A stretch of DNA of 64,000 nucleotides from an uncultured Gammaproteobacteria bacterium (GCA_964431805.1 CAYSKV010000004.1:12201-76200), one strand, 5' to 3'. Counted from the stretch's first letter, positions 1,876 through 62,953 are shown. Numbers and translations: made by a program. Notes: generated from the letters alone by a model not told the origin.

Positions 1876-1903
1876 TTGCAATTTTCCTTAAATAATGTAT
1901 AAT
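1876..1903 (+). promoter_or_regulatory. sigma70-type promoter for the rpsA leader
   Basis: TTGCAA (1876-1881), 16-nt spacer, TATAAT (1898-1903). Confidence 0.6.
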
Positions 1904-1920
1904 ATATACATCAATTAAAT

Positions 1921-1997
1921 ACTCACCTTTTTATTAATCTCTTGGTTTAGGTGGCCAGGAGGCTTCTCTGTAAAGAGAGGTTATGAGTGTTTTTTTA
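1921..1997 (+). promoter_or_regulatory. Structured 5' leader segment of rpsA: two hairpins followed by a U-run
   Basis: Hairpin 1 is CTCTTGG (1939-1945) / CCAGGAG (1955-1961). Hairpin 2 is CTTCTCT (1963-1969) / AGAGAGG (1974-1980) with a GTAA (GNRA) loop. ACTCA (1921-1925) / TGAGT (1984-1988) closes them, then T-run 1990-1997. Confidence 0.45.
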
Positions 1998-2006
1998 TTT
2001 TATTTA

Positions 2007-2085
2007 CCCCGTTAGAAATTTCAACGAAAAAACTTAATTGGGTAATTATAAATAAAAGCAAATATTATGCAAATTTCTAACGGGG
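2007..2085 (+). promoter_or_regulatory. 15-bp perfect inverted repeat enclosing the rpsA start codon
   Basis: CCCCGTTAGAAATTT (2007-2021) is the exact reverse complement of AAATTTCTAACGGGG (2071-2085). ATG 2067 lies in the loop, 1 nt before the right arm. Confidence 0.6.
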
Positions 2086-3371
2086 CGAGCGAAGAAACTA
2101 AGAATAATGGCGCTAACATGCAGTTTGATCAAGCCAGCGATCAAGAATTTCAAAAATTGTTAGACGCGGAAAATGCTAAAATTCCTCAAGTCGGGGATAT
2201 TATAAAAGGTACGGTTTTGTCAGCTTCAAAAGCTGAAGTTAAACTTGATATTGATGGTATTGCTACCGGCGTGGTGCGCGGTCGCGAGCTTTATTTTGAA
2301 GCCGAAGAATATGCCAATTTAAAACCGGGCGATGAAGTTGAAGCTACTATAGTTGAGGAGGAAAATGAAAATGGAGATTTAGAGCTATCATTTAGAAGCG
2401 CCGGTCAACAAAAGGCTTGGAGCGCTTTGTTTGATGCTTATGAAAATAGAAAAATATTAAAATTCAGAGTTAACGACGCCAATAAGGGCGGCTTATTAGT
2501 AAGCTATGGCCAAATTCAAGGGTTTTTACCGGTTTCGCAGTTAGCGCCGGAAAACTATCCGCGAGTTAACGGTGGCGATAAGGGCAGAATTTTAGACAAA
2601 TTAAAATCTTTTGTCGGTACTGATTTTGAAGTTAAGATTATGACTTTAGATGAAAAGGATGAAAAATTGGTTGTTAGCGAAAAAGAGGCTTGGCAAGAAA
2701 AGCAAAAAGACATAATTTCAAAATATAAAGTTGGTAGCGTAGTCGAAGGTTCAATTACGGCTTTGACTGATTTTGGAATTTTTGTGAGCTTTGGTGAAAA
2801 TTTAGAAGGCTTAATCCATATTTCAGAATTAGCCTGGCAGCGCATTGATAATCCATCTGACTTATTTAAAGTTGGAGATACAATAAAAGCTGAAATAATT
2901 TCCATTGAAGGTTCAAAAATATTTTTGTCAGCTAAAAAACTTTTAACCGATCCTTGGCATGATGTAGAAAAGAAATATAAGGTCGGTCAAGTAGTTTCAG
3001 GCACTATTCTTAAAGTTAATCCTTTCGGTTTGTTTGTTGAGTTAGATGCAGACATACATGGTTTAGCCCATGTTAGTCAGATCGGATTAGCGGCAGGACA
3101 AAAAATTAGCGATACTTTTCACTCTGGAGAAAAAAGAGATTTCACTGTTGTTTCCATTGAGCCAAAAGATCATCGTTTAGGTTTATCTGTATCTGTTGAT
3201 GGTGAAAAGCCAGCTGCTAAAAGCAAAAAGAAAGAAGATAAAGACGATGAAGAAAAGAAAATAAAATCTAAAAAGGCCAAGAAAGAGAAAGATAGCGAAA
3301 AGGAAGAACCCTCCTCTGCTAAAGCTACGGAGGACAAGAAAAAAGAAAAGCCAGCTAAAAAGAAAAAATAA
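2067..3371 (+). CDS. rpsA: 30S ribosomal protein S1 (four S1/OB repeats) with a Lys/Glu-rich C-terminal tail
   Basis: Repeated S1-domain strings (GDIIKGTV, GGLLVSYGQIQGFLPVSQL, GSVVEGSITALTDFGIFVSF, GQVVSGTILKVNPFGLFVEL). The last ~55 aa are a K/E/D low-complexity tail. Confidence 0.9.
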   Translation: MQISNGASEETKNNGANMQFDQASDQEFQKLLDAENAKIPQVGDIIKGTVLSASKAEVKLDIDGIATGVVRGRELYFEAEEYANLKPGDEVEATIVEEENENGDLELSFRSAGQQKAWSALFDAYENRKILKFRVNDANKGGLLVSYGQIQGFLPVSQLAPENYPRVNGGDKGRILDKLKSFVGTDFEVKIMTLDEKDEKLVVSEKEAWQEKQKDIISKYKVGSVVEGSITALTDFGIFVSFGENLEGLIHISELAWQRIDNPSDLFKVGDTIKAEIISIEGSKIFLSAKKLLTDPWHDVEKKYKVGQVVSGTILKVNPFGLFVELDADIHGLAHVSQIGLAAGQKISDTFHSGEKRDFTVVSIEPKDHRLGLSVSVDGEKPAAKSKKKEDKDDEEKKIKSKKAKKEKDSEKEEPSSAKATEDKKKEKPAKKKK

Positions 3372-8947: not shown

Positions 8948-9928
8948 ATGCAAATAATTAAGATAACGGATAAAAAACAGCTAAATGATTTTGTTGGCTC
9001 ACAAACTAAGAGCCAATTTTTGCAATCATGGCAATGGGGGGAATTTCAAAAAGAAGTTAGCGGTACTATTTGGCGAATTGGTGTCGTAGAAGATGATGGA
9101 CGGCTATTAGCTTCGGCTAAATTAGTTAAAAAACAATTACCCATGGGGCGAAGTTATTTTTATTGCGGACGCGGTCCGGCTATAGGAGATATAAAAAGAA
9201 GCGCGGTAATTATGAATGAATTATTTAAGACCATTAAAGATTTAGCCACGGATGAAGGCGCTATGTTTTTAAGGTTTGAACCGGTTAATGAATTTAAAAT
9301 TTCTGATTTTAATTTTTCGATTTCTCAGACCATTGATGTCCAGCCAAGCCAAACATTAATTTTAGATTTAACTAAATCTGAAGAAGAAATTTTGCAAGGC
9401 ATGCATCAAAAAACTCGTTATAATATTCGTTTGGCAGAAAAGAAAGGCGTTAAAATTATTGAGGCAGGCGCTGATCGCTTTGAAGAATTTTGGCAACTCT
9501 TAGCTTCTACTGGCGATCGGGATGATTTTAATTTGCATGGTCGTAGTTATTATCAGGCTATGCTAAAAATGGATAATAGTTTTGTAAAATTATTATTTGC
9601 TGAATATAAAGGTAAATTATTAGCTGGAAATTTAGTAGTTTTTTTCGGCGACACGGTTACTTATATTCATGGCGGTTCTTCTAATGATAATCGAGAGGTA
9701 ATGGCGCCATACGCTTTGCAGTGGCATACTATTAAATTAGCTAAACAAGCAGGATTTAAATATTATGATTTTCATGGTATTGATGAAGTTAAATGGCCAG
9801 GAGTAACTCGTTTTAAAATGGGTTACGGCGGACAGATTGTAAAATATCCTGGTACTTTTGATTTAGTATATGATGACGCTTGGTATAATATTTATAAAAT
9901 GATTAGAAAAGTAAGAAGAACATTTTAA
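8948..9928 (+). CDS. FemAB-family peptidoglycan interpeptide-bridge aminoacyltransferase
   Basis: FLQSWQWGEF near the N-terminus, KTRYNIRLAEKKGV, YIHGGSS...APYALQW; typical of lipid II:aminoacyl transferases. Confidence 0.8.
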   Translation: MQIIKITDKKQLNDFVGSQTKSQFLQSWQWGEFQKEVSGTIWRIGVVEDDGRLLASAKLVKKQLPMGRSYFYCGRGPAIGDIKRSAVIMNELFKTIKDLATDEGAMFLRFEPVNEFKISDFNFSISQTIDVQPSQTLILDLTKSEEEILQGMHQKTRYNIRLAEKKGVKIIEAGADRFEEFWQLLASTGDRDDFNLHGRSYYQAMLKMDNSFVKLLFAEYKGKLLAGNLVVFFGDTVTYIHGGSSNDNREVMAPYALQWHTIKLAKQAGFKYYDFHGIDEVKWPGVTRFKMGYGGQIVKYPGTFDLVYDDAWYNIYKMIRKVRRTF

Positions 9929-24629: not shown

Positions 24630-24920
24630 TTATTTTTCTTGTCTTTCCATTTTTATGGCTTTAAATGGGCACTCAACTGCGCATAAGCCACAACCCTTAC
24701 AATACAATAAATCACATTCAAAATATTTTTTACCGCTAGCGTTAGTTTTTTCGGTTTGATTAATTATGCCTTCAGGACAAATTCGTTGGCAAATGCCGCA
24801 AGCCGTGCATGCGTCATGTAAAAAATTTGGCCGGTTAGTGCGCCAGGCGCCGGTTTTATTTATTAATGTTGTGTTTGGTGAAACTGAAATATTATTTTTT
24901 ACCCCGTTAGATAGTCTCAT
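24630..24920 (-). CDS. porD: Pyruvate:ferredoxin oxidoreductase delta subunit (2x[4Fe-4S] ferredoxin)
   Basis: Two CxxCxxCxxxCP motifs: CTACGICQRICP and CKGCGLCAVECP. Confidence 0.9.
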   Translation of the reverse strand: MRLSNGVKNNISVSPNTTLINKTGAWRTNRPNFLHDACTACGICQRICPEGIINQTEKTNASGKKYFECDLLYCKGCGLCAVECPFKAIKMERQEK

Positions 24921-24961
24921 GTTTTTTAGTTATACCCCGTAAAATAATTATCTAACGGGGT
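24901..24961 (-). promoter_or_regulatory. 13-bp perfect inverted repeat enclosing the porD start codon (porG-porD junction)
   Basis: ACCCCGTTAGATA (24901-24913) is the exact reverse complement of TATCTAACGGGGT (24949-24961). A third partial copy, ACCCCGT, sits at 24934-24940. The porD ATG (24920-24918) lies inside. Confidence 0.6.
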
Positions 24962-25500
24962 GAATATTTGTATGCCTGTTCAATTGCTTTTATATTTTTT
25001 TCTATTAAATCATTATGGCCGGCAAATTTTTCTTCAATGGCTTGTTTTAAAGCAGCTAAACTTATTAAGCCAGTTGCTTTAGCAAAAGCGCCCAAAATAA
25101 CCGTATTAACAATATTTTTACCGATTATTTCTAAGGCGATTTTAGTGGCGTCAATCGTATAAATATTGGCTTGTGGCAGATTAATTTTTAAATCACGCTT
25201 AGCTTTAGACGTGTTAATAATGGCGATAGTTTTTTTGTCCGCGCCTTTAGTCATGTCAAAATTATCAAGCAGACTAGCGTCTTGAATAATTAAAATGTTT
25301 GGTTGATAAATTTGTTCTCTGGTTATTATTGGTTTATCGTCTATGCGGGCATAAGCTTCTACTGGAGCGCCGGTTCTTTCTACGCCGAAAGAGGGGAAAG
25401 CTTGCGCTTGCTCGCCGTTTTTAAAAGCGGCGATGGCGATTAGTTCAGCAGCCGTTACTACGCCTTGGCCGCCGCGGCCATGAATTCTAATTTGTATCAT
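24952..25500 (-). CDS. porG: Pyruvate:ferredoxin oxidoreductase gamma subunit
   Basis: MIQIRIHGRGGQGVVTAAELIA N-terminus, typical of PorG/PorC. Confidence 0.9.
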   Translation of the reverse strand: MIQIRIHGRGGQGVVTAAELIAIAAFKNGEQAQAFPSFGVERTGAPVEAYARIDDKPIITREQIYQPNILIIQDASLLDNFDMTKGADKKTIAIINTSKAKRDLKINLPQANIYTIDATKIALEIIGKNIVNTVILGAFAKATGLISLAALKQAIEEKFAGHNDLIEKNIKAIEQAYKYSPR

Positions 25501-34758: not shown

Positions 34759-37224
34759 ATGAATTTTACTATAATATTACCATTAATCAGCGCGATCTTA
34801 GCTATTAGCATAGGCATTTTTGTATTTAAGCAAAATAGAAAAAGTTTGATAAATCAAACTTTTTTTCTTTTTACTCTTGGTATAACGGAATGGTTTATTT
34901 GCACTTTCATGATGTTTTTATATAAAGATGATGTGGCGGGGGTAATTTTTTGGGATAGATTAGTCTATGCTGGTGTAGCATTTATGCCGGTTTTTACTTA
35001 TAAATTTTATTTAGCCTTAATTGGTAAAAAATCTGACAAAATTCTTTATGTCGGTTATTTATTATCAATAAGTTTTGCGATCCTTACACGTTCAAAATAT
35101 TTTATTGATGGTATTTATGTTTATAGCTGGGGCGTCCATACACAAGCTAGAATTCTGCACCATATATTTTTGGTGTATTTTGTAGTATTTATATTATTAT
35201 GGTTCTTCGCTACTTTAAAATTTTATAAAAGCCTTAAACCGTCATTAATTAAAGAACAAACTAAATATATATTTATATCTTTTGGCGTATTTTATTTAAT
35301 TGCGCCTCTCGGTTTTTTAGCGGCTTATAATGTAGGAGTTTATCCTGTAACATATTTTTCTGGATTAATTTTTACTATCATGATGGCTTATTGTATAGCG
35401 ATTTATCGCGTTATGGACATTAAATTAGTAATTAGAAAATCCTCCGTCTATCTCTTTTCCCTGGCCACAGTTTTAATTTTTATGACGACCGTTAAATTGA
35501 TTTCTGCTCAATTATTTACTGCTCCTCCAATTTGGATTGATTTATTGGTTCTATTAATTGCTGTTTATATTTTTTCGCCTATTAAGCATTATTACTATCG
35601 TTTAGCTAATAAATATTTCTTCTCCTCTTTGTATGATAGCCGCGAACTAATTGCTGATTTAAGCGATAAACTCCGCTCTACCATTGAAATCGGTAAAATC
35701 TATGAATATGTTTCAGAAATTTTAGTTAATGCTTTGCACGTGACCGCTTTTGGCGTTGTGTCTTTTGATGAAAAAAAACAAGTTTATATAACCCAGTATG
35801 GTCAAGGCTTAAACATCGGCCAACAAGAAATATTCCCAGGCAGTAAAGAAATATATAAAATTTTTACTAAAAGAAATCAGCCGATCATTGTTGAAGAAAT
35901 AAAATTTAGTAATTTTAAAATTAATAAGTCAATTTTAAATTTACTCACTAAAGCAAACGTCGCCCTGTTATCTCCTCTAAACATGAAAGATAAAACAGTC
36001 GGCATGATGGTATTTGGCCCTAAAGAATCCAAAGACCCTTTTAACGAAGAAGATTTAAAAGTTCTAGAAATTTTAGGCACGCAAATCGCTTTTGCCATGG
36101 AGAACGCTTTGCTCTACGCAGAATCGGTAAAATTTAATATCCAATTGAATGAAGAAAAAAATAAAATTGCGGCTATTATCGCTAACTTTATCGACCCGAT
36201 TATCTTTGTTGACCGCTATAATAATATTAACCTCATAAACCCGGCCGCTAAAAACATCCTCGGTTTAACAGAAAAAAGCTTGGGCGTAAGCATAGATACT
36301 AGCAATAATTGCCCGATGTCTAACTTCCGTACCGTCATCAAAAAAGAGTTTCAGATTAAAGAAATTGGCAATTTAAAATCAACTGATCATCATAGCGAAG
36401 AAATGTCTATTTTAGTTAATAACCAAGAATTAATTTATAAAATTACAACCATCAGGGTTTTTGATGATCAAACAAACCACCTAGGCCTCATGAAAATTTT
36501 CGTCAATCTCACCCGCGAAAAAGGCATTGATAAAATGAAATCAGAATTTATCTCTATCGCCGCCCATCAGCTAAGAACCCCATTATCAGCCATTAAATGG
36601 GTAATTAAGATGATATTAGACGGGGATGCTGGAGAACTTAATGTTGAGCAAAAAGATTTATTAAGGAAGGGCTATATTAGCAACGAAAGAATTATCAGAT
36701 TAGTTAATGATTTATTAAACGTTTCTCGTATTGAAGAAGGTAAGTTTGGATTTAATTTTGAAAAAACCGATTTTCAAGAAATTTTGACTACGACCAAAAG
36801 CAACTTAGAAGGTTTAATAGCAAAAAATCACCAAGAATTAATAGTGCAAAAACCAGAGAAACTACCTAAAGTATATCTGGACAAAGAAAGAATGGTTATG
36901 GTTTTGCAAAATTTACTTGATAATGCCATAAAATATACTCCAGAATATGGAAAAATAGAAATAATTGTTACTACCGACAAAAAATTTCTGCATGTTAAAG
37001 TTAAAGATCAAGGGGTAGGCATAAGCAAAAATGATCAAGCTAAATTATTTTCTAAATTTTTCCGAGCCTCTAATGCGCTTAAACTAGAAACCGAAGGCAG
37101 CGGATTAGGATTGTTTATAGTAAAAAATATTATTGAAAAACATAATGGTTCAATTGAATTAAAAAGCGAAGAAGGTCGAGGAACCGAAATAAGTTTTTCT
37201 TTGCCAATTGAGCAAAAACTTTAG
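34759..37224 (+). CDS. Sensor histidine kinase 1 (multi-TM sensor, GAF-like, PAS-like, HisKA, HATPase_c)
   Basis: H-box SIAAHQLRTPL, N-box LLDNAIKYTP, G-boxes DQGVGI and GSGLGL, and an N-terminal domain of about 7 TM segments. Confidence 0.9.
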   Translation: MNFTIILPLISAILAISIGIFVFKQNRKSLINQTFFLFTLGITEWFICTFMMFLYKDDVAGVIFWDRLVYAGVAFMPVFTYKFYLALIGKKSDKILYVGYLLSISFAILTRSKYFIDGIYVYSWGVHTQARILHHIFLVYFVVFILLWFFATLKFYKSLKPSLIKEQTKYIFISFGVFYLIAPLGFLAAYNVGVYPVTYFSGLIFTIMMAYCIAIYRVMDIKLVIRKSSVYLFSLATVLIFMTTVKLISAQLFTAPPIWIDLLVLLIAVYIFSPIKHYYYRLANKYFFSSLYDSRELIADLSDKLRSTIEIGKIYEYVSEILVNALHVTAFGVVSFDEKKQVYITQYGQGLNIGQQEIFPGSKEIYKIFTKRNQPIIVEEIKFSNFKINKSILNLLTKANVALLSPLNMKDKTVGMMVFGPKESKDPFNEEDLKVLEILGTQIAFAMENALLYAESVKFNIQLNEEKNKIAAIIANFIDPIIFVDRYNNINLINPAAKNILGLTEKSLGVSIDTSNNCPMSNFRTVIKKEFQIKEIGNLKSTDHHSEEMSILVNNQELIYKITTIRVFDDQTNHLGLMKIFVNLTREKGIDKMKSEFISIAAHQLRTPLSAIKWVIKMILDGDAGELNVEQKDLLRKGYISNERIIRLVNDLLNVSRIEEGKFGFNFEKTDFQEILTTTKSNLEGLIAKNHQELIVQKPEKLPKVYLDKERMVMVLQNLLDNAIKYTPEYGKIEIIVTTDKKFLHVKVKDQGVGISKNDQAKLFSKFFRASNALKLETEGSGLGLFIVKNIIEKHNGSIELKSEEGRGTEISFSLPIEQKL
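35438..36636 (+). repeat. Identical segment shared by the two kinase genes (copy 1)
   Basis: 35438-36582 is identical base for base to 37956-39100 (offset 2518; I compared every line). There are two mismatches at 36583 and 36585, then identity to 36636. Confidence 0.95.
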
Positions 37225-37255: not shown

Positions 37256-39748
37256 ATGAATTTACAAAATTTTTTATCACTAAATGGTCTTTTAACCGGA
37301 ATCATAGCCGCTGTTTTTGGTTTCATGGTTATTTTTAAAGATCGAAAAAATATTATTAATCAAACCCTTTTTGGCCTAACTATGACTACCGCTCTTTGGC
37401 AACTTGGTTATTGGCGTTGGTTAATGATTTATGATAATCAAGATTTAGCTTTATTTTGGTGTCGAGTTTTATCAGTCGGTTCTCATTTTCTCGCAGTTTT
37501 TTATTTTCATTGGATTGTTTCTTTGTTGGGTTTGAATAAACAGAAAAAAAAGCTTATTTTTGTTTCTTATTTTGTAGCTGGTATTTTTTTGTTTTTTATT
37601 TTTTCCCCTTGGTTTGTCAGTAGTGTTGAGCCCGTCGGAAATTATTTTGCTTTTTGGCCTAAAGCCGGTTTTTTATATTCTATTTACATAGTTTTAATGT
37701 TTTTGGGTTTAGCTCCTTATGCTCTTTTTTTACTTTTCAGACATTATAAAAAATCTGTTGGTCAAAAAAGAAATCAAATAAAATATGTTATTATTGCCAC
37801 AATTCTCGCTTTTGGTGGGGGAGAAACTAATTTTCCTCTTTGGTATGATATTCCTATATTGCCCATAGGAAATGTATTAGTCGTGTTATATCCAATTCTT
37901 TTTTCTTATGCAATTATTAGACATCGTTTAATGGATATAAAGTTTGTTTTACGCCAATCCTCCGTCTATCTCTTTTCCCTGGCCACAGTTTTAATTTTTA
38001 TGACGACCGTTAAATTGATTTCTGCTCAATTATTTACTGCTCCTCCAATTTGGATTGATTTATTGGTTCTATTAATTGCTGTTTATATTTTTTCGCCTAT
38101 TAAGCATTATTACTATCGTTTAGCTAATAAATATTTCTTCTCCTCTTTGTATGATAGCCGCGAACTAATTGCTGATTTAAGCGATAAACTCCGCTCTACC
38201 ATTGAAATCGGTAAAATCTATGAATATGTTTCAGAAATTTTAGTTAATGCTTTGCACGTGACCGCTTTTGGCGTTGTGTCTTTTGATGAAAAAAAACAAG
38301 TTTATATAACCCAGTATGGTCAAGGCTTAAACATCGGCCAACAAGAAATATTCCCAGGCAGTAAAGAAATATATAAAATTTTTACTAAAAGAAATCAGCC
38401 GATCATTGTTGAAGAAATAAAATTTAGTAATTTTAAAATTAATAAGTCAATTTTAAATTTACTCACTAAAGCAAACGTCGCCCTGTTATCTCCTCTAAAC
38501 ATGAAAGATAAAACAGTCGGCATGATGGTATTTGGCCCTAAAGAATCCAAAGACCCTTTTAACGAAGAAGATTTAAAAGTTCTAGAAATTTTAGGCACGC
38601 AAATCGCTTTTGCCATGGAGAACGCTTTGCTCTACGCAGAATCGGTAAAATTTAATATCCAATTGAATGAAGAAAAAAATAAAATTGCGGCTATTATCGC
38701 TAACTTTATCGACCCGATTATCTTTGTTGACCGCTATAATAATATTAACCTCATAAACCCGGCCGCTAAAAACATCCTCGGTTTAACAGAAAAAAGCTTG
38801 GGCGTAAGCATAGATACTAGCAATAATTGCCCGATGTCTAACTTCCGTACCGTCATCAAAAAAGAGTTTCAGATTAAAGAAATTGGCAATTTAAAATCAA
38901 CTGATCATCATAGCGAAGAAATGTCTATTTTAGTTAATAACCAAGAATTAATTTATAAAATTACAACCATCAGGGTTTTTGATGATCAAACAAACCACCT
39001 AGGCCTCATGAAAATTTTCGTCAATCTCACCCGCGAAAAAGGCATTGATAAAATGAAATCAGAATTTATCTCTATCGCCGCCCATCAGCTAAGAACCCCA
39101 CTCTCAGCCATTAAATGGGTAATTAAGATGATATTAGACGGGGATGCTGGAGAATTGTCTCTGGAACAACAAGAACTATTAAACAAAGGTTATCTAAGCA
39201 ACGAACGAGTTATTAGGTTAGTTAACGACCTATTGAACGTTTCTCGTATTGAAGAAGGCAAATTTGGGTTTAATTTTGAGAGCACTGATTTTAAAGAAGT
39301 TCTAGACACTTCCATTAGTAATATTGATAGTTTAATTGATAAAAGCCATCAAGAGCTCAAGATTGAAATCCCGCCAAAACTACCCAAGATATATTTAGAT
39401 AAAGAAAGAATCATTATGGTAATACAAAATTTATTAAGTAATGCCATCAAATATACTCCAGAATATGGTAAGATTGAAGTAATTATTAAAGTTGACAAGC
39501 AGTACCTGAATGTTAAAATTAAAGACCAGGGGGTAGGCATACCGGCCGAAGATCAGCCAAAAATATTTTCTAAATTTTTCCGAGCGGCTAATGTGGTTAA
39601 ATTAGAAACCGAAGGCAGCGGACTAGGCCTCTTTATGGTTAAAAACATCATCGAAAAACATAAGGGCCAAGTCAGTTTAAAAAGCGAAGAAGGCAAAGGC
39701 ACGGAAGTTAGTTTTACTTTGCCGATAAATGGAATGATTAGTTTATAA
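37256..39748 (+). CDS. Sensor histidine kinase 2 (paralog of 34759-37224)
   Basis: Same domain order as kinase 1. The N-terminal TM sensor is only weakly similar, the core is identical, and the catalytic domain is moderately diverged. Confidence 0.9.
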   Translation: MNLQNFLSLNGLLTGIIAAVFGFMVIFKDRKNIINQTLFGLTMTTALWQLGYWRWLMIYDNQDLALFWCRVLSVGSHFLAVFYFHWIVSLLGLNKQKKKLIFVSYFVAGIFLFFIFSPWFVSSVEPVGNYFAFWPKAGFLYSIYIVLMFLGLAPYALFLLFRHYKKSVGQKRNQIKYVIIATILAFGGGETNFPLWYDIPILPIGNVLVVLYPILFSYAIIRHRLMDIKFVLRQSSVYLFSLATVLIFMTTVKLISAQLFTAPPIWIDLLVLLIAVYIFSPIKHYYYRLANKYFFSSLYDSRELIADLSDKLRSTIEIGKIYEYVSEILVNALHVTAFGVVSFDEKKQVYITQYGQGLNIGQQEIFPGSKEIYKIFTKRNQPIIVEEIKFSNFKINKSILNLLTKANVALLSPLNMKDKTVGMMVFGPKESKDPFNEEDLKVLEILGTQIAFAMENALLYAESVKFNIQLNEEKNKIAAIIANFIDPIIFVDRYNNINLINPAAKNILGLTEKSLGVSIDTSNNCPMSNFRTVIKKEFQIKEIGNLKSTDHHSEEMSILVNNQELIYKITTIRVFDDQTNHLGLMKIFVNLTREKGIDKMKSEFISIAAHQLRTPLSAIKWVIKMILDGDAGELSLEQQELLNKGYLSNERVIRLVNDLLNVSRIEEGKFGFNFESTDFKEVLDTSISNIDSLIDKSHQELKIEIPPKLPKIYLDKERIIMVIQNLLSNAIKYTPEYGKIEVIIKVDKQYLNVKIKDQGVGIPAEDQPKIFSKFFRAANVVKLETEGSGLGLFMVKNIIEKHKGQVSLKSEEGKGTEVSFTLPINGMISL
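37956..39154 (+). repeat. Identical segment shared by the two kinase genes (copy 2)
   Basis: See 35438-36636. Even the antisense 73-aa track ORFs (35877-36098 and 38395-38616) are identical. Confidence 0.95.
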
Positions 39749-61844: not shown

Positions 61845-62843
61845 ATGTTTGGTTTTTTTAAAAAAGAAAAAATAGAAAAGATTGAAACTATCGGTGAAAA
61901 AAAATCCGCGGCTGCTTTAAAAGAGCAAGTTAATGTTGATAATATAGATGTTCATGTTATGCCAGATCGTTTTCGCAATCAACCAATTAAGCAGCATAGC
62001 GCTAAAACTACTGGTCTAATAATAATTATTGGCGGCGGGGTATTTTTAGTAGTGCTTTCGGCGGTTTTATATTATTTTCTGTTTAAAAAACCAAGCGTAA
62101 CTATTAATCAGGAACCGTCTATAATTAAAGAAGAAAATAAACCCACTCAAGAGAATAATCAAATCAATCAAAATTTAGCTGCAACCGGAACCGAATCAAC
62201 GCTTTTACCGATAAGTTCTGAAGCGGCGACCACAACCGTTGCTACTACAACCGAAGAAATTATGGAAGAGACAGATAATCTTGCTTTAAGTTTTGGGCAA
62301 GATAGCGACAATGATGGTTTAACTGATATGGAAGAAACTATTTTAAGCAGTAGCACTTCCACGCCTGACACTGACGGCGATGGTTATCTCGACGGTTCAG
62401 AATTAGGAAATTTATACAATCCAGCCGGCGAAGGTAAAATAACCGCTAATTCAAACATCGTGCTTTATGAAAATAAAACTTTTTCTTACGATTTGTTTTA
62501 TCCGGCGATTTGGCAAACTAGCGTTAACGGCGGGGATGATTCGTTGATGTTTAAAACCAGCGATAACCAATTTGTGCAAATAATCGTTCAGCCTAACGTT
62601 AATAAACAAACGCTTGATGACTGGTATATAGAACAGCTTGGCGTTATCGCTATTAACGAAGCTGATAGAATGAGCGGCGGAAATTGGCAGGGCATTAAAA
62701 GCCCGGATGGTTTAAACATTTATTTAATGAATGAAAAACAGAGTTATATATTTAATTTAACTTATAGTCCGGGCGAAAATAAAATTTTACAATATTTTAA
62801 TATTTTTCAGATGATGGTTAAATCGTTTAATTTAAAAAATTAA
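61845..62843 (+). CDS. Membrane-anchored protein with Asp-rich Ca-binding repeats and a C-terminal globular domain
   Basis: One TM segment. DSDNDGLTDMEE and DTDGDGYLDGSE. C-terminal domain of ~140 aa with no recognised family. Confidence 0.6.
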   Translation: MFGFFKKEKIEKIETIGEKKSAAALKEQVNVDNIDVHVMPDRFRNQPIKQHSAKTTGLIIIIGGGVFLVVLSAVLYYFLFKKPSVTINQEPSIIKEENKPTQENNQINQNLAATGTESTLLPISSEAATTTVATTTEEIMEETDNLALSFGQDSDNDGLTDMEETILSSSTSTPDTDGDGYLDGSELGNLYNPAGEGKITANSNIVLYENKTFSYDLFYPAIWQTSVNGGDDSLMFKTSDNQFVQIIVQPNVNKQTLDDWYIEQLGVIAINEADRMSGGNWQGIKSPDGLNIYLMNEKQSYIFNLTYSPGENKILQYFNIFQMMVKSFNLKN

Positions 62844-62852
62844 GGTAATGAA

Positions 62853-62953
62853 CCCCAGTTAGAAATTAATTAATGGTTTAATTATTCTGGTTATATTAAG
62901 TAAAAATAAAATAATTACTGCGATGAAAAAACAAAAAAGAAATTCTAACGGGG
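62853..62953 (+). promoter_or_regulatory. Imperfect inverted repeat of the CCCCGTTAGA family spanning the ybeY start codon
   Basis: CCCCAGTTAGAAATT (62853-62867) versus AATTCTAACGGGG (62941-62953): 4 + 7 bp with one bulged A. ATG 62923 lies between the arms. Confidence 0.5.

Follow-up and report, generated by a model that had tools for sequence, protein, structure and literature searches.

A hairpin enclosing the rpsA start codon in a Patescibacteria genome is probably one copy of a very short palindromic transposable element family

In the 64,000-nucleotide stretch of DNA analysed here (hereafter the window), the host of which is Candidatus Falkowbacteria (Patescibacteria) recovered from metagenomes, the start codon of rpsA is enclosed by a perfect inverted repeat, which is probably one copy of a family of very short, non-autonomous, palindromic transposable elements of the MITE-like type. 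Insertions and the corresponding empty sites are found in relatives, target sites are duplicated, the anatomy of the copies is defined, their lengths are compatible with in-frame translation and the family is spread across phyla. As for the RNA hairpin that the arms can form, it appears to be a by-product rather than the reason for the existence of the element.

Inverted repeats at gene starts in the window

The two arms at rpsA, namely CCCCGTTAGAAATTT (2007-2021) and AAATTTCTAACGGGG (2071-2085), are exact reverse complements of 15 nt each, located 49 nt apart, as described in an earlier note made from the sequence alone. The rpsA ATG (2067-2069) lies one base 5' of the right arm, which translation confirms to code for QISNGA, the N-terminus of the protein, MQISNGA, being element-derived. 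When at most one mismatch is allowed, the 10-mer core occurs 9 times in the 64-kb window against 1.7 expected, a count that none of 100 shuffles reaches, and it makes exactly three inverted pairs, i.e., 2007/2085, 24902/24960 and 62853/62953; the recurrence at porD and ybeY reported earlier is thus genuine. These copies have total lengths of 79, 59 and 101 nt, respectively, and unrelated interiors, the left arm at ybeY carrying a 1-nt insertion (CCCCAGTTAGA). The genes concerned encode a 434-aa S1-domain protein (rpsA), a 4Fe-4S delta subunit (porD) and a protein matching PF02130 (ybeY), and in all three the coding-side arm does yield the S-N-G tripeptide (MQISNGA, MRLSNGV and MKKQKRNSNGV, respectively), which the earlier note rightly attributed to selection at the nucleotide rather than the protein level. 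Four independent assemblies contain the same rpsA element, which rules out an artefact of assembly. The features of the three loci are as follows.

1876-1903, plus strand: sigma-70-like promoter of the rpsA leader, TTGCAA-16-TATAAT, with hexamers conserved in relatives
1930-2002, plus strand: rpsA 5' leader, host sequence outside the element, with a hairpin (1963-1979) and then a U-rich run
2003-2006, no strand: left flank TTTA, taken as the degenerate left copy of the target-site duplication, the old ATG being destroyed
2007-2021, plus strand: left terminal inverted repeat of the rpsA element, CCCCGTTAGAAATTT
2022-2070, plus strand: AT-rich interior of the rpsA element, holding the new start ATG 2067-2069
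2071-2085, plus strand: right terminal inverted repeat of the rpsA element, AAATTTCTAACGGGG, read as (Q)ISNG(A)
2067-3371, plus strand: rpsA (ribosomal protein S1)
24902-24960, minus strand: second copy, 59 nt, between porG and porD, with arms at 24901-24913 and 24949-24961
24952-24954, minus strand: TAG stop of the gene for the PFOR gamma subunit (ORF 24952-25500), provided by the element arm (CCC CGT TAG)
24630-24920, minus strand: porD, with its start ATG (24920-24918) within the element and MRLSNGV element-derived
62842-62850, plus strand: ancestral AAGG motif and old ATG (62848-62850) of ybeY, just left of the element
62853-62953, plus strand: third copy, 101 nt, with left arm at 62853-62867, right arm at 62939-62953 and flanks TGAA / TAAA
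62923-63360, plus strand: ybeY, with its start ATG (62923) within the element and MKKQKRNSNGV element-derived

The second copy contains an additional inner partial arm (24935-24940, plus strand), and at the third the old ybeY ATG now begins a 4-codon dead-end ORF. The absence of a Shine-Dalgarno sequence at rpsA, pointed out in the earlier note, is true yet ordinary here, as even a weak motif resembling it is present in just 4 of the 41 window genes, upstream regions being AT-rich.

A transcript from the promoter at 1876-1903 would span both rpsA arms. The leader is kept in empty as well as filled relatives, with compensatory changes in its stem (CTTCTCT/AGAGAG versus CTTTCCT/AGGAAG), and gives no Rfam match; it may act in S1 autoregulation or as a translational enhancer and be particular to these Patescibacteria. 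A CACC...GGTG pairing can also be drawn in the region 1930-2006, the U-rich run of which stops at the ancestral ATG. Elsewhere in the window, two adjacent paralogues of 821 and 830 aa (34759-37224 and 37256-39748) have identical stretches, e.g., TAAGATGATATTAGACGGGGATGCT at 36606 and 39124, which looks like the outcome of a recent tandem duplication.

Empty and filled sites in relatives

RpsA homologues fall into two classes, those beginning with MQ[IT]SNG[VA]xEETK and, in large majority, those beginning plainly with MTEETK or MNDDTQ. At the DNA level, the empty site of locus L012 reads ...TTTTTTTGTTTTATGAACGATG, whereas in L011, a strain-level relative of L012 (rpsA 99.7% identical), about 80 nt, ACCCCGTTAGAAGTT...AACTTCTAATGGGGT, are inserted into the ATG; comparison of the empty L012 and L009 with the filled L011 and window places the insert on the old rpsA ATG. 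The two strains differ in their leaders despite nearly identical rpsA genes, so the filled allele of L011 has probably moved by recombination. Carry-over without duplication, to which the flanks in this pair of strains (TTTA/TGAA) had pointed, was dropped, as true duplications are found in L143 as well as in L119 and L125. The rpsA start of L143 reads TTTTA-TGAA[element, CCCC...GGGG]TGAA-TGATGAA, i.e., a perfect 4-bp duplication of the old start-codon site.

The same picture holds for the other two genes. Most YbeY homologues begin with MKIEINN and filled alleles with M...SNGVKIEINN, the empty DNA AAGGGAATGAAAATTGAA corresponding in the window to AAGGTAATGAA[element]TAAAGCTAGAA. Relatives of PorD begin with MKNNISV, porG and porD overlapping as ATGAAAAATAA, and in the window the element lies between these two genes. 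In each window copy the insertion point coincides exactly with A|TGAA of the former ATGAA start, and the empty-site DNA thus indicates that all three are insertions at a TGAA overlapping the start codon. As ATGAA opens 17 of the 41 larger ORFs of the window, the apparent attraction of the element to start codons is explained. Among the options listed in the earlier note was a small mobile palindrome supplying start codons; it is supported by the empty and filled orthologous starts at all three genes and also by the perfect 4-bp duplication in L143, by identical elements with duplications of their own and by at least 120 related copies, described below.

The duplications of the three window copies are degenerate, none of them being perfect. 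After insertion, the left flank has changed from TGAA to TTTA at rpsA and to TTCA at porD; judging from these sequences, the old ATG seems prone to be lost from the left duplication copy once a start has been hit. At rpsA, the TTTA at 2003-2006 is taken as derived from the ancestral TGAA of an ATGAA-type start, which is kept in L143, the closest empty rpsA allele reading ATGAC. In L144, both rpsA arms have decayed with the gene intact, and probably likewise in L005.

Several further inserts were noticed around these genes. In L005 (9900-10000; closest relative, P0002), the rpsA start carries a different insert of about 68 nt with ends CCCTCATA...TGTGATGG, which appears flanked by TTTA/TTTA one position upstream and leaves the ATG intact; it is either a decayed copy or a related or degenerate element that inserted independently, and in both cases the site resembles a hot spot. 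A palindromic element with variant arms ACCCCGTTAAATAGCG...TTATTTCACGGGGT is present upstream of the rpsA leader in L007 (9748-9804) and L005 (about 9790-9850) and absent from the window. Also just upstream of this leader, in one strain of the P0053 lineage (L013:393-1261), is an IS5-family element with DUF4096 and DDE_Tnp_1_2 ORFs, which was rejected as the source of the hairpin since its ends are unrelated to the motif. Another pair of variant arms, CCCCGTTAAA/TTTAACGGGG, exists, and the YbeY homologues P0173, P0185, P0188 and P0193 have internal in-frame inserts, YPVK...FNGV, located mid-protein and matching these arms; as such, one small gene has been hit at two places in different lineages.

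Anatomy and distribution of the family

The family was searched for in one genome per species using perfect 10-mers in the arrangement CCCCGTTAGA-N30-60-TCTAACGGGG, which returned at least 120 loci, against about 17 matches expected by chance as estimated for uniform base composition. With the taxonomy of metagenome-assembled genomes (MAGs) as deposited, the matches listed include Patescibacteria (many classes), Omnitrophota, Cloacimonadota, Bacteroidales (Bacteroidota), Nitrospirota, Nitrospinota, Pirellulales, Phycisphaerae and Brocadiaceae (Planctomycetota), Desulfobacteria, KSB1 and others, with a locus G+C of 27 to 61%. Judged by eye, the base composition of the interiors seems to follow that of the locus, AT-rich where G+C is low and GC-rich where it is high. 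Carriage by phages is slight, with 6 matches in 2.9 million viral contigs.

Copies among the matches listed are 47-106 nt long, with 3 in the 64 kb of the window and several per MAG elsewhere. Their terminal repeat amounts to 13 bp, composed of CCCCGTTAGA and three covarying bp, around an interior that is unrelated even within one genome; the stem runs on for exactly 3 covarying bp in 65 of the 127 copies listed. On both sides the flanks read T-N-N-A, with G favoured at -5 and C at +5 (127 copies listed), and the flanking 4-mers are identical in 59 of these 127 copies against 8.7 with shuffled partners. A length of 2 mod 3 is found in 72 of the 127 (57%), so that the element and its 4-bp duplication together make a whole number of codons. 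In one case, a 50-nt element is 100% identical at different loci of a Saccharibacteria MAG (L119:244-293) and a Giovannonibacteria MAG (L125:5680-5729), each copy being flanked by a perfect duplication of its own, TCAA in the former and TGAA in the latter. Such identical elements with different duplications are a classical signature of transposition and indicate recent horizontal spread.

Respective to genes, 114 copies could be classified, the classification from ORFs being approximate. Inside long ORFs, 23 copies are read through in-frame, all of them of length 2 mod 3, and the start codon of the downstream ORF is held by 22 others (about 20%), 6 more having this start just upstream; 18 contain the stop of the upstream ORF and 49 touch no long ORF. 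The encoded peptides are of the form [N/H/Y/D]PVR...xSNG|[V/A] or, in the other open frame, TPLE...LTG, and inside ProB, HolB, UvrA, FolD and others they constitute insertions relative to homologues. The commonest neighbours, at 12 of the 120 loci listed, are GspE/PilB ATPase genes (type IV pilus/T2SS), and prepilin leader peptides (...LTG|FTL[IV]E) are a recurrent landing site. In L026 (2942-3105 and 6121-6200), L102, L113 and L128, elements, some of them tandem dimers, immediately precede the G|FTL[IV]E cleavage motif; extra residues at this place would be removed by the prepilin peptidase.

Some copies depart from the simple arrangement. The 65-nt copies of L028, L047, L051, L062, L066, L067, L073, L078, L098 and L110, as well as L046, L072, L081 and L085, form subfamilies whose interiors fold as two hairpins or as a nested four-stem shape, with many compensatory changes across phyla and, in one orientation, tetraloops of the UUCG and GNRA types, which suggests that the interior may be under structural selection, as RNA or single-stranded DNA, in some lineages. 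Nested or serial arms (L-R-R, L-L-R) are seen in the window (24935-24960), L007 (9908-10030), L145, L017, L061 and L077, with, among these loci, minimal hairpins of about 26-32 nt that comprise barely more than the two arms; this suggests insertions into existing copies or one-ended events.

A proposed mechanism

Four typical features of MITEs are present, namely terminal inverted repeats, a duplication of fixed length, small non-coding units in multiple copies and empty sites in relatives. An element would thus consist of two 13-bp terminal inverted repeats around almost any interior sequence, the ends being recognised by a DDE transposase that would act in trans, make 4-bp staggered cuts and, by cut-and-paste or copy-paste, insert the element at T-N-N-A (wider consensus G|TNNA|C) with duplication of those 4 bp. 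In this AT-rich genome, three insertions fell on the TGAA overlapping the starts of rpsA, porD and ybeY, and each gene would have remained functional through an in-frame ATG that the AT-rich interior offered as new start codon. Such a takeover by an ATG in an AT-rich loop is plausible in a genome nearly devoid of Shine-Dalgarno sequences. Translation of the right repeat would then give S-N-G, with V or A next to it where the old Met stood, and at porD the other repeat would give the upstream gene its TAG stop. Only copies preserving function would persist, i.e., those of in-frame length within tolerant protein regions or cleaved leader peptides, and those at the very 5' or 3' terminus of a gene, with an ATG from the interior or a TAG from the arm.

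The CCC ends, the 13-bp repeat and the 4-bp T..A duplication make a piggyBac/IS1380-like enzyme the foremost candidate, this resemblance of end features being a lead and not a test. Across about 1 Mb of loci, a search for an autonomous copy in the form of arm pairs 300-4000 nt apart returned only neighbouring short elements; none of these long-range pairs encloses a transposase, one relaxed match enclosing a threonyl-tRNA synthetase. Among the loci listed, no transposase was found near the arms, the recurrent neighbours being housekeeping and type IV pilus genes. Further points against a transposon are that about half of the copies listed, including all three in the window, are without a perfect duplication, and that interiors unrelated within one genome are unusual for MITE families.

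Alternative explanations

The arms could instead control translation by pairing within the mRNA, so that the start codon is sequestered or positioned, in a thermometer-like manner or bound by a protein or RNase, the recurrence of the motif then defining a regulon. The predicted stems of the three copies are indeed stable (-22.2, -21.3 and -19.4 kcal/mol, with z-scores of -3.5, -4.7 and -2.2), the upstream promoter would have both rpsA arms transcribed, and in situ conservation of the arms far exceeds that of neutral sites, with one double change at arm position 12. The start-sequestering hairpin considered in the earlier note nevertheless finds no support as the origin or general role of the element, which is absent from most orthologues, has lost both arms in L144 and probably L005 with the gene retained, and occurs within coding regions, at stop codons and in intergenic DNA of many phyla, most copies being away from starts (of 114, 23 lie within coding regions and 49 touch no long ORF). 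Moreover, what is invariant is the sequence itself over 10 nt, not just the pairing, and the flanks carry target-site duplications. On the sense strand of 56 genic copies, G:U pairs do not exceed A:C mismatches, either in the arms (28 versus 35) or in the flanks (22 versus 26); this, with stems predicted and the element missing from most orthologues, favours a terminal repeat acting at the DNA level. At gathering score, the window and 19 element-bearing loci match only tRNAs in Rfam. Regulation by an RNA hairpin is accordingly quite improbable as an explanation of the motif. Comparison of orthologues, which the earlier note had proposed as a refuting test, went against a conserved regulatory hairpin, the motif being absent from most of them; where it is present, its arms are conserved in sequence, with a single compensatory pair.

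The main alternative as to mechanism, in itself unlikely, is that the element moves as single-stranded hairpin DNA through an HUH/Y1 transposase of the REP/REPIN-RAYT or TIRYT-like kind, the flanking TNNA then marking the tetranucleotides at which cleavage occurs, with no duplication involved. In its favour, REPINs likewise combine conserved arms with a free interior, REPs too are found within genes and provide TAG stops, and about half of the copies listed have non-identical flanks that still fit TNNA. The flanking 4-mers TTTA, TCAA, TTGA and TTCA resemble IS200/IS605 target tetranucleotides. RAYT-like genes flanked by terminal inverted repeats with a common GGGGWSAS motif have also been described (PMC3733652). 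Against this, identical elements carry different perfect repeats (TCAA/TCAA versus TGAA/TGAA) and the host TGAA is duplicated in L143, true duplications of this type arguing against such a mechanism; furthermore, neither a GTAG or CGTC tag nor a Y1 transposase is found near any copy listed, and by eye no arm position covaries with the flanking tetranucleotide.

A sequence-invariant 10-bp inverted motif is also what a sequence-specific protein would recognise, and the arms might be paired operators of a DNA-binding regulator flanking promoters or starts; given a site spacing from about 6 to more than 80 nt, locations mostly unrelated to promoters, insertion polymorphism with duplications and occurrence in phyla with no specific regulator in common, this is very unlikely. 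Scarcely credible is an invertible, phase-variable segment, or an element skipped by ribosome hopping as in T4 gene 60 or the mitochondrial 'byp', in spite of the inverted repeats bracketing the start codon and of short direct repeats flanking the hairpin as in bypass elements. A single orientation is found in four independent assemblies, and with 39-80 nt the segments lack the length needed for recombinase synapsis; the excess of in-frame lengths and the stop-free reading imply that the elements are translated, not bypassed. Integron attC sites have the core order R'' (RYYYAAC) ... R' (GTTRRRY). They were rejected as an identity because the order here, GTTAGA...TCTAAC on both strands, is the reverse, and the 77-bp inverted repeat of Porphyromonas gingivalis was judged unrelated.

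Relation to known systems

Rickettsia palindromic elements (RPEs) measure about 100-150 bp, are restricted to Rickettsia and have conserved interiors without a clear terminal inverted repeat or duplication. The MITE-like family described here has in common with them that short palindromic selfish DNA lies in-frame in functional genes and is translated as extra segments (for RPE in-frame insertion, see PMC3733652), but differs by a length of 47-106 nt, 13-bp terminal repeats, a 4-bp TNNA duplication, a free interior, occurrence in many phyla and frequent replacement of start or stop codons; hosts and lengths being different, only the behaviour is common. Bacterial MITEs, e.g., the Correia elements of Neisseria, are likewise non-coding, below 300 bp, bordered by terminal inverted repeats and target-site duplications, present in multiple copies, polymorphic for insertion and active on neighbouring genes; yet classical MITE families have a common interior and can be linked to a parent IS, whereas only 13 terminal bp are common here, with ends identical across phyla. 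The family is closest to RPEs in behaviour and to MITEs in anatomy. The classical piggyBac terminal repeat, CCCTAGAAAGATA, is also of 13 bp. Like piggyBac/IS1380, the element has a 4-bp T..A duplication and a terminal repeat starting with CCC, but its target is TNNA rather than strictly TTAA, and the likeness comes from end features alone; for piggyBac, the duplication variants TAAA and TCAA have been reported, and IS1380 is the prokaryotic outgroup for piggyBac transposases (PMC10813416).

REP/REPIN sequences and their RAYT also combine conserved inverted arms around a variable spacer with intragenic copies and TAG stops (PMC3733652), but the present arms begin with CCCCGTTAGA and are not self-complementary, the defining GTAG/CGTC tag (PMC3733652) is missing, target duplications are real and, among the loci listed, no RAYT is nearby. 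As with mRNA hairpins sequestering starts, i.e., RNA thermometers and translational operators, a stable stem covers the first ORF codons; the stem here, though, is not conserved at orthologues, is found in non-start contexts too and is invariant in sequence rather than pairing. The traits that make the family unusual are that only the termini are common, that it spreads across phyla, that starts and stops are frequently replaced and that the arms persist in situ. In 8 million full texts, the arm sequences gave only chance matches to primers; nothing specific was found in the literature on MITEs or palindromic in-frame elements in CPR, Planctomycetes or Omnitrophica, and no matching terminal repeat in the data of the REP/TIRYT paper. 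A published description of these ends was hence not found in the literature searched, which is not proof of absence.

Conservation of the arms in place

Seven orthologous filled rpsA alleles have recognisable interiors in common. In deep-clade comparisons of rpsA, the two 10-mers are identical at 19-20 of 20 positions, against 57-65% for the interior and 39-47% for rpsA fourfold sites (synonymous sites being saturated), the recognition of filled alleles through the SNG motif biasing the right arm and not the left. The double change at arm position 12 mentioned above, A:T to G:C, separates clades. Such conservation should not be seen in a dead selfish insertion or simple junk DNA, and a constraint on the arms in place is possible, which could include a secondary effect of the element on translation. 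Filled alleles are, however, scattered over the RpsA tree and at least one has moved by recombination, so repeated replacement may contribute to the conservation of the arms.

Significance

For annotation, the element generates false or shifted starts, N-terminal extensions, split genes and inserts of 16-28 residues in conserved enzymes; better gene calls and protein alignments would follow from its recognition, in CPR as well as in other phyla known only from MAGs. It provides a clear bacterial case, outside Rickettsia, of selfish DNA tolerated inside coding sequence, and of a transposon providing genes with their start and stop codons in organisms that initiate translation largely without Shine-Dalgarno sequences. 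The ends are the same from one phylum to another and one element is 100% identical in two CPR classes, both of which speak for a transposition system that is active and moves horizontally; if of the piggyBac/IS1380 type, it could excise seamlessly. More tentatively, and with less than even confidence, these elements could represent an undescribed superfamily of ultra-short hairpin transposons that spreads horizontally, settles in-frame within coding sequences, rewires gene starts and stops across Patescibacteria, Omnitrophota, Planctomycetota and other uncultivated phyla and keeps its 10-13-bp ends intact in place for very long. If so, this would mean continuing activity of a piggyBac/IS1380-like or HUH transposase in all these lineages, or co-option by the host, e.g., for the control of mRNA or translation at starts lacking a Shine-Dalgarno sequence.
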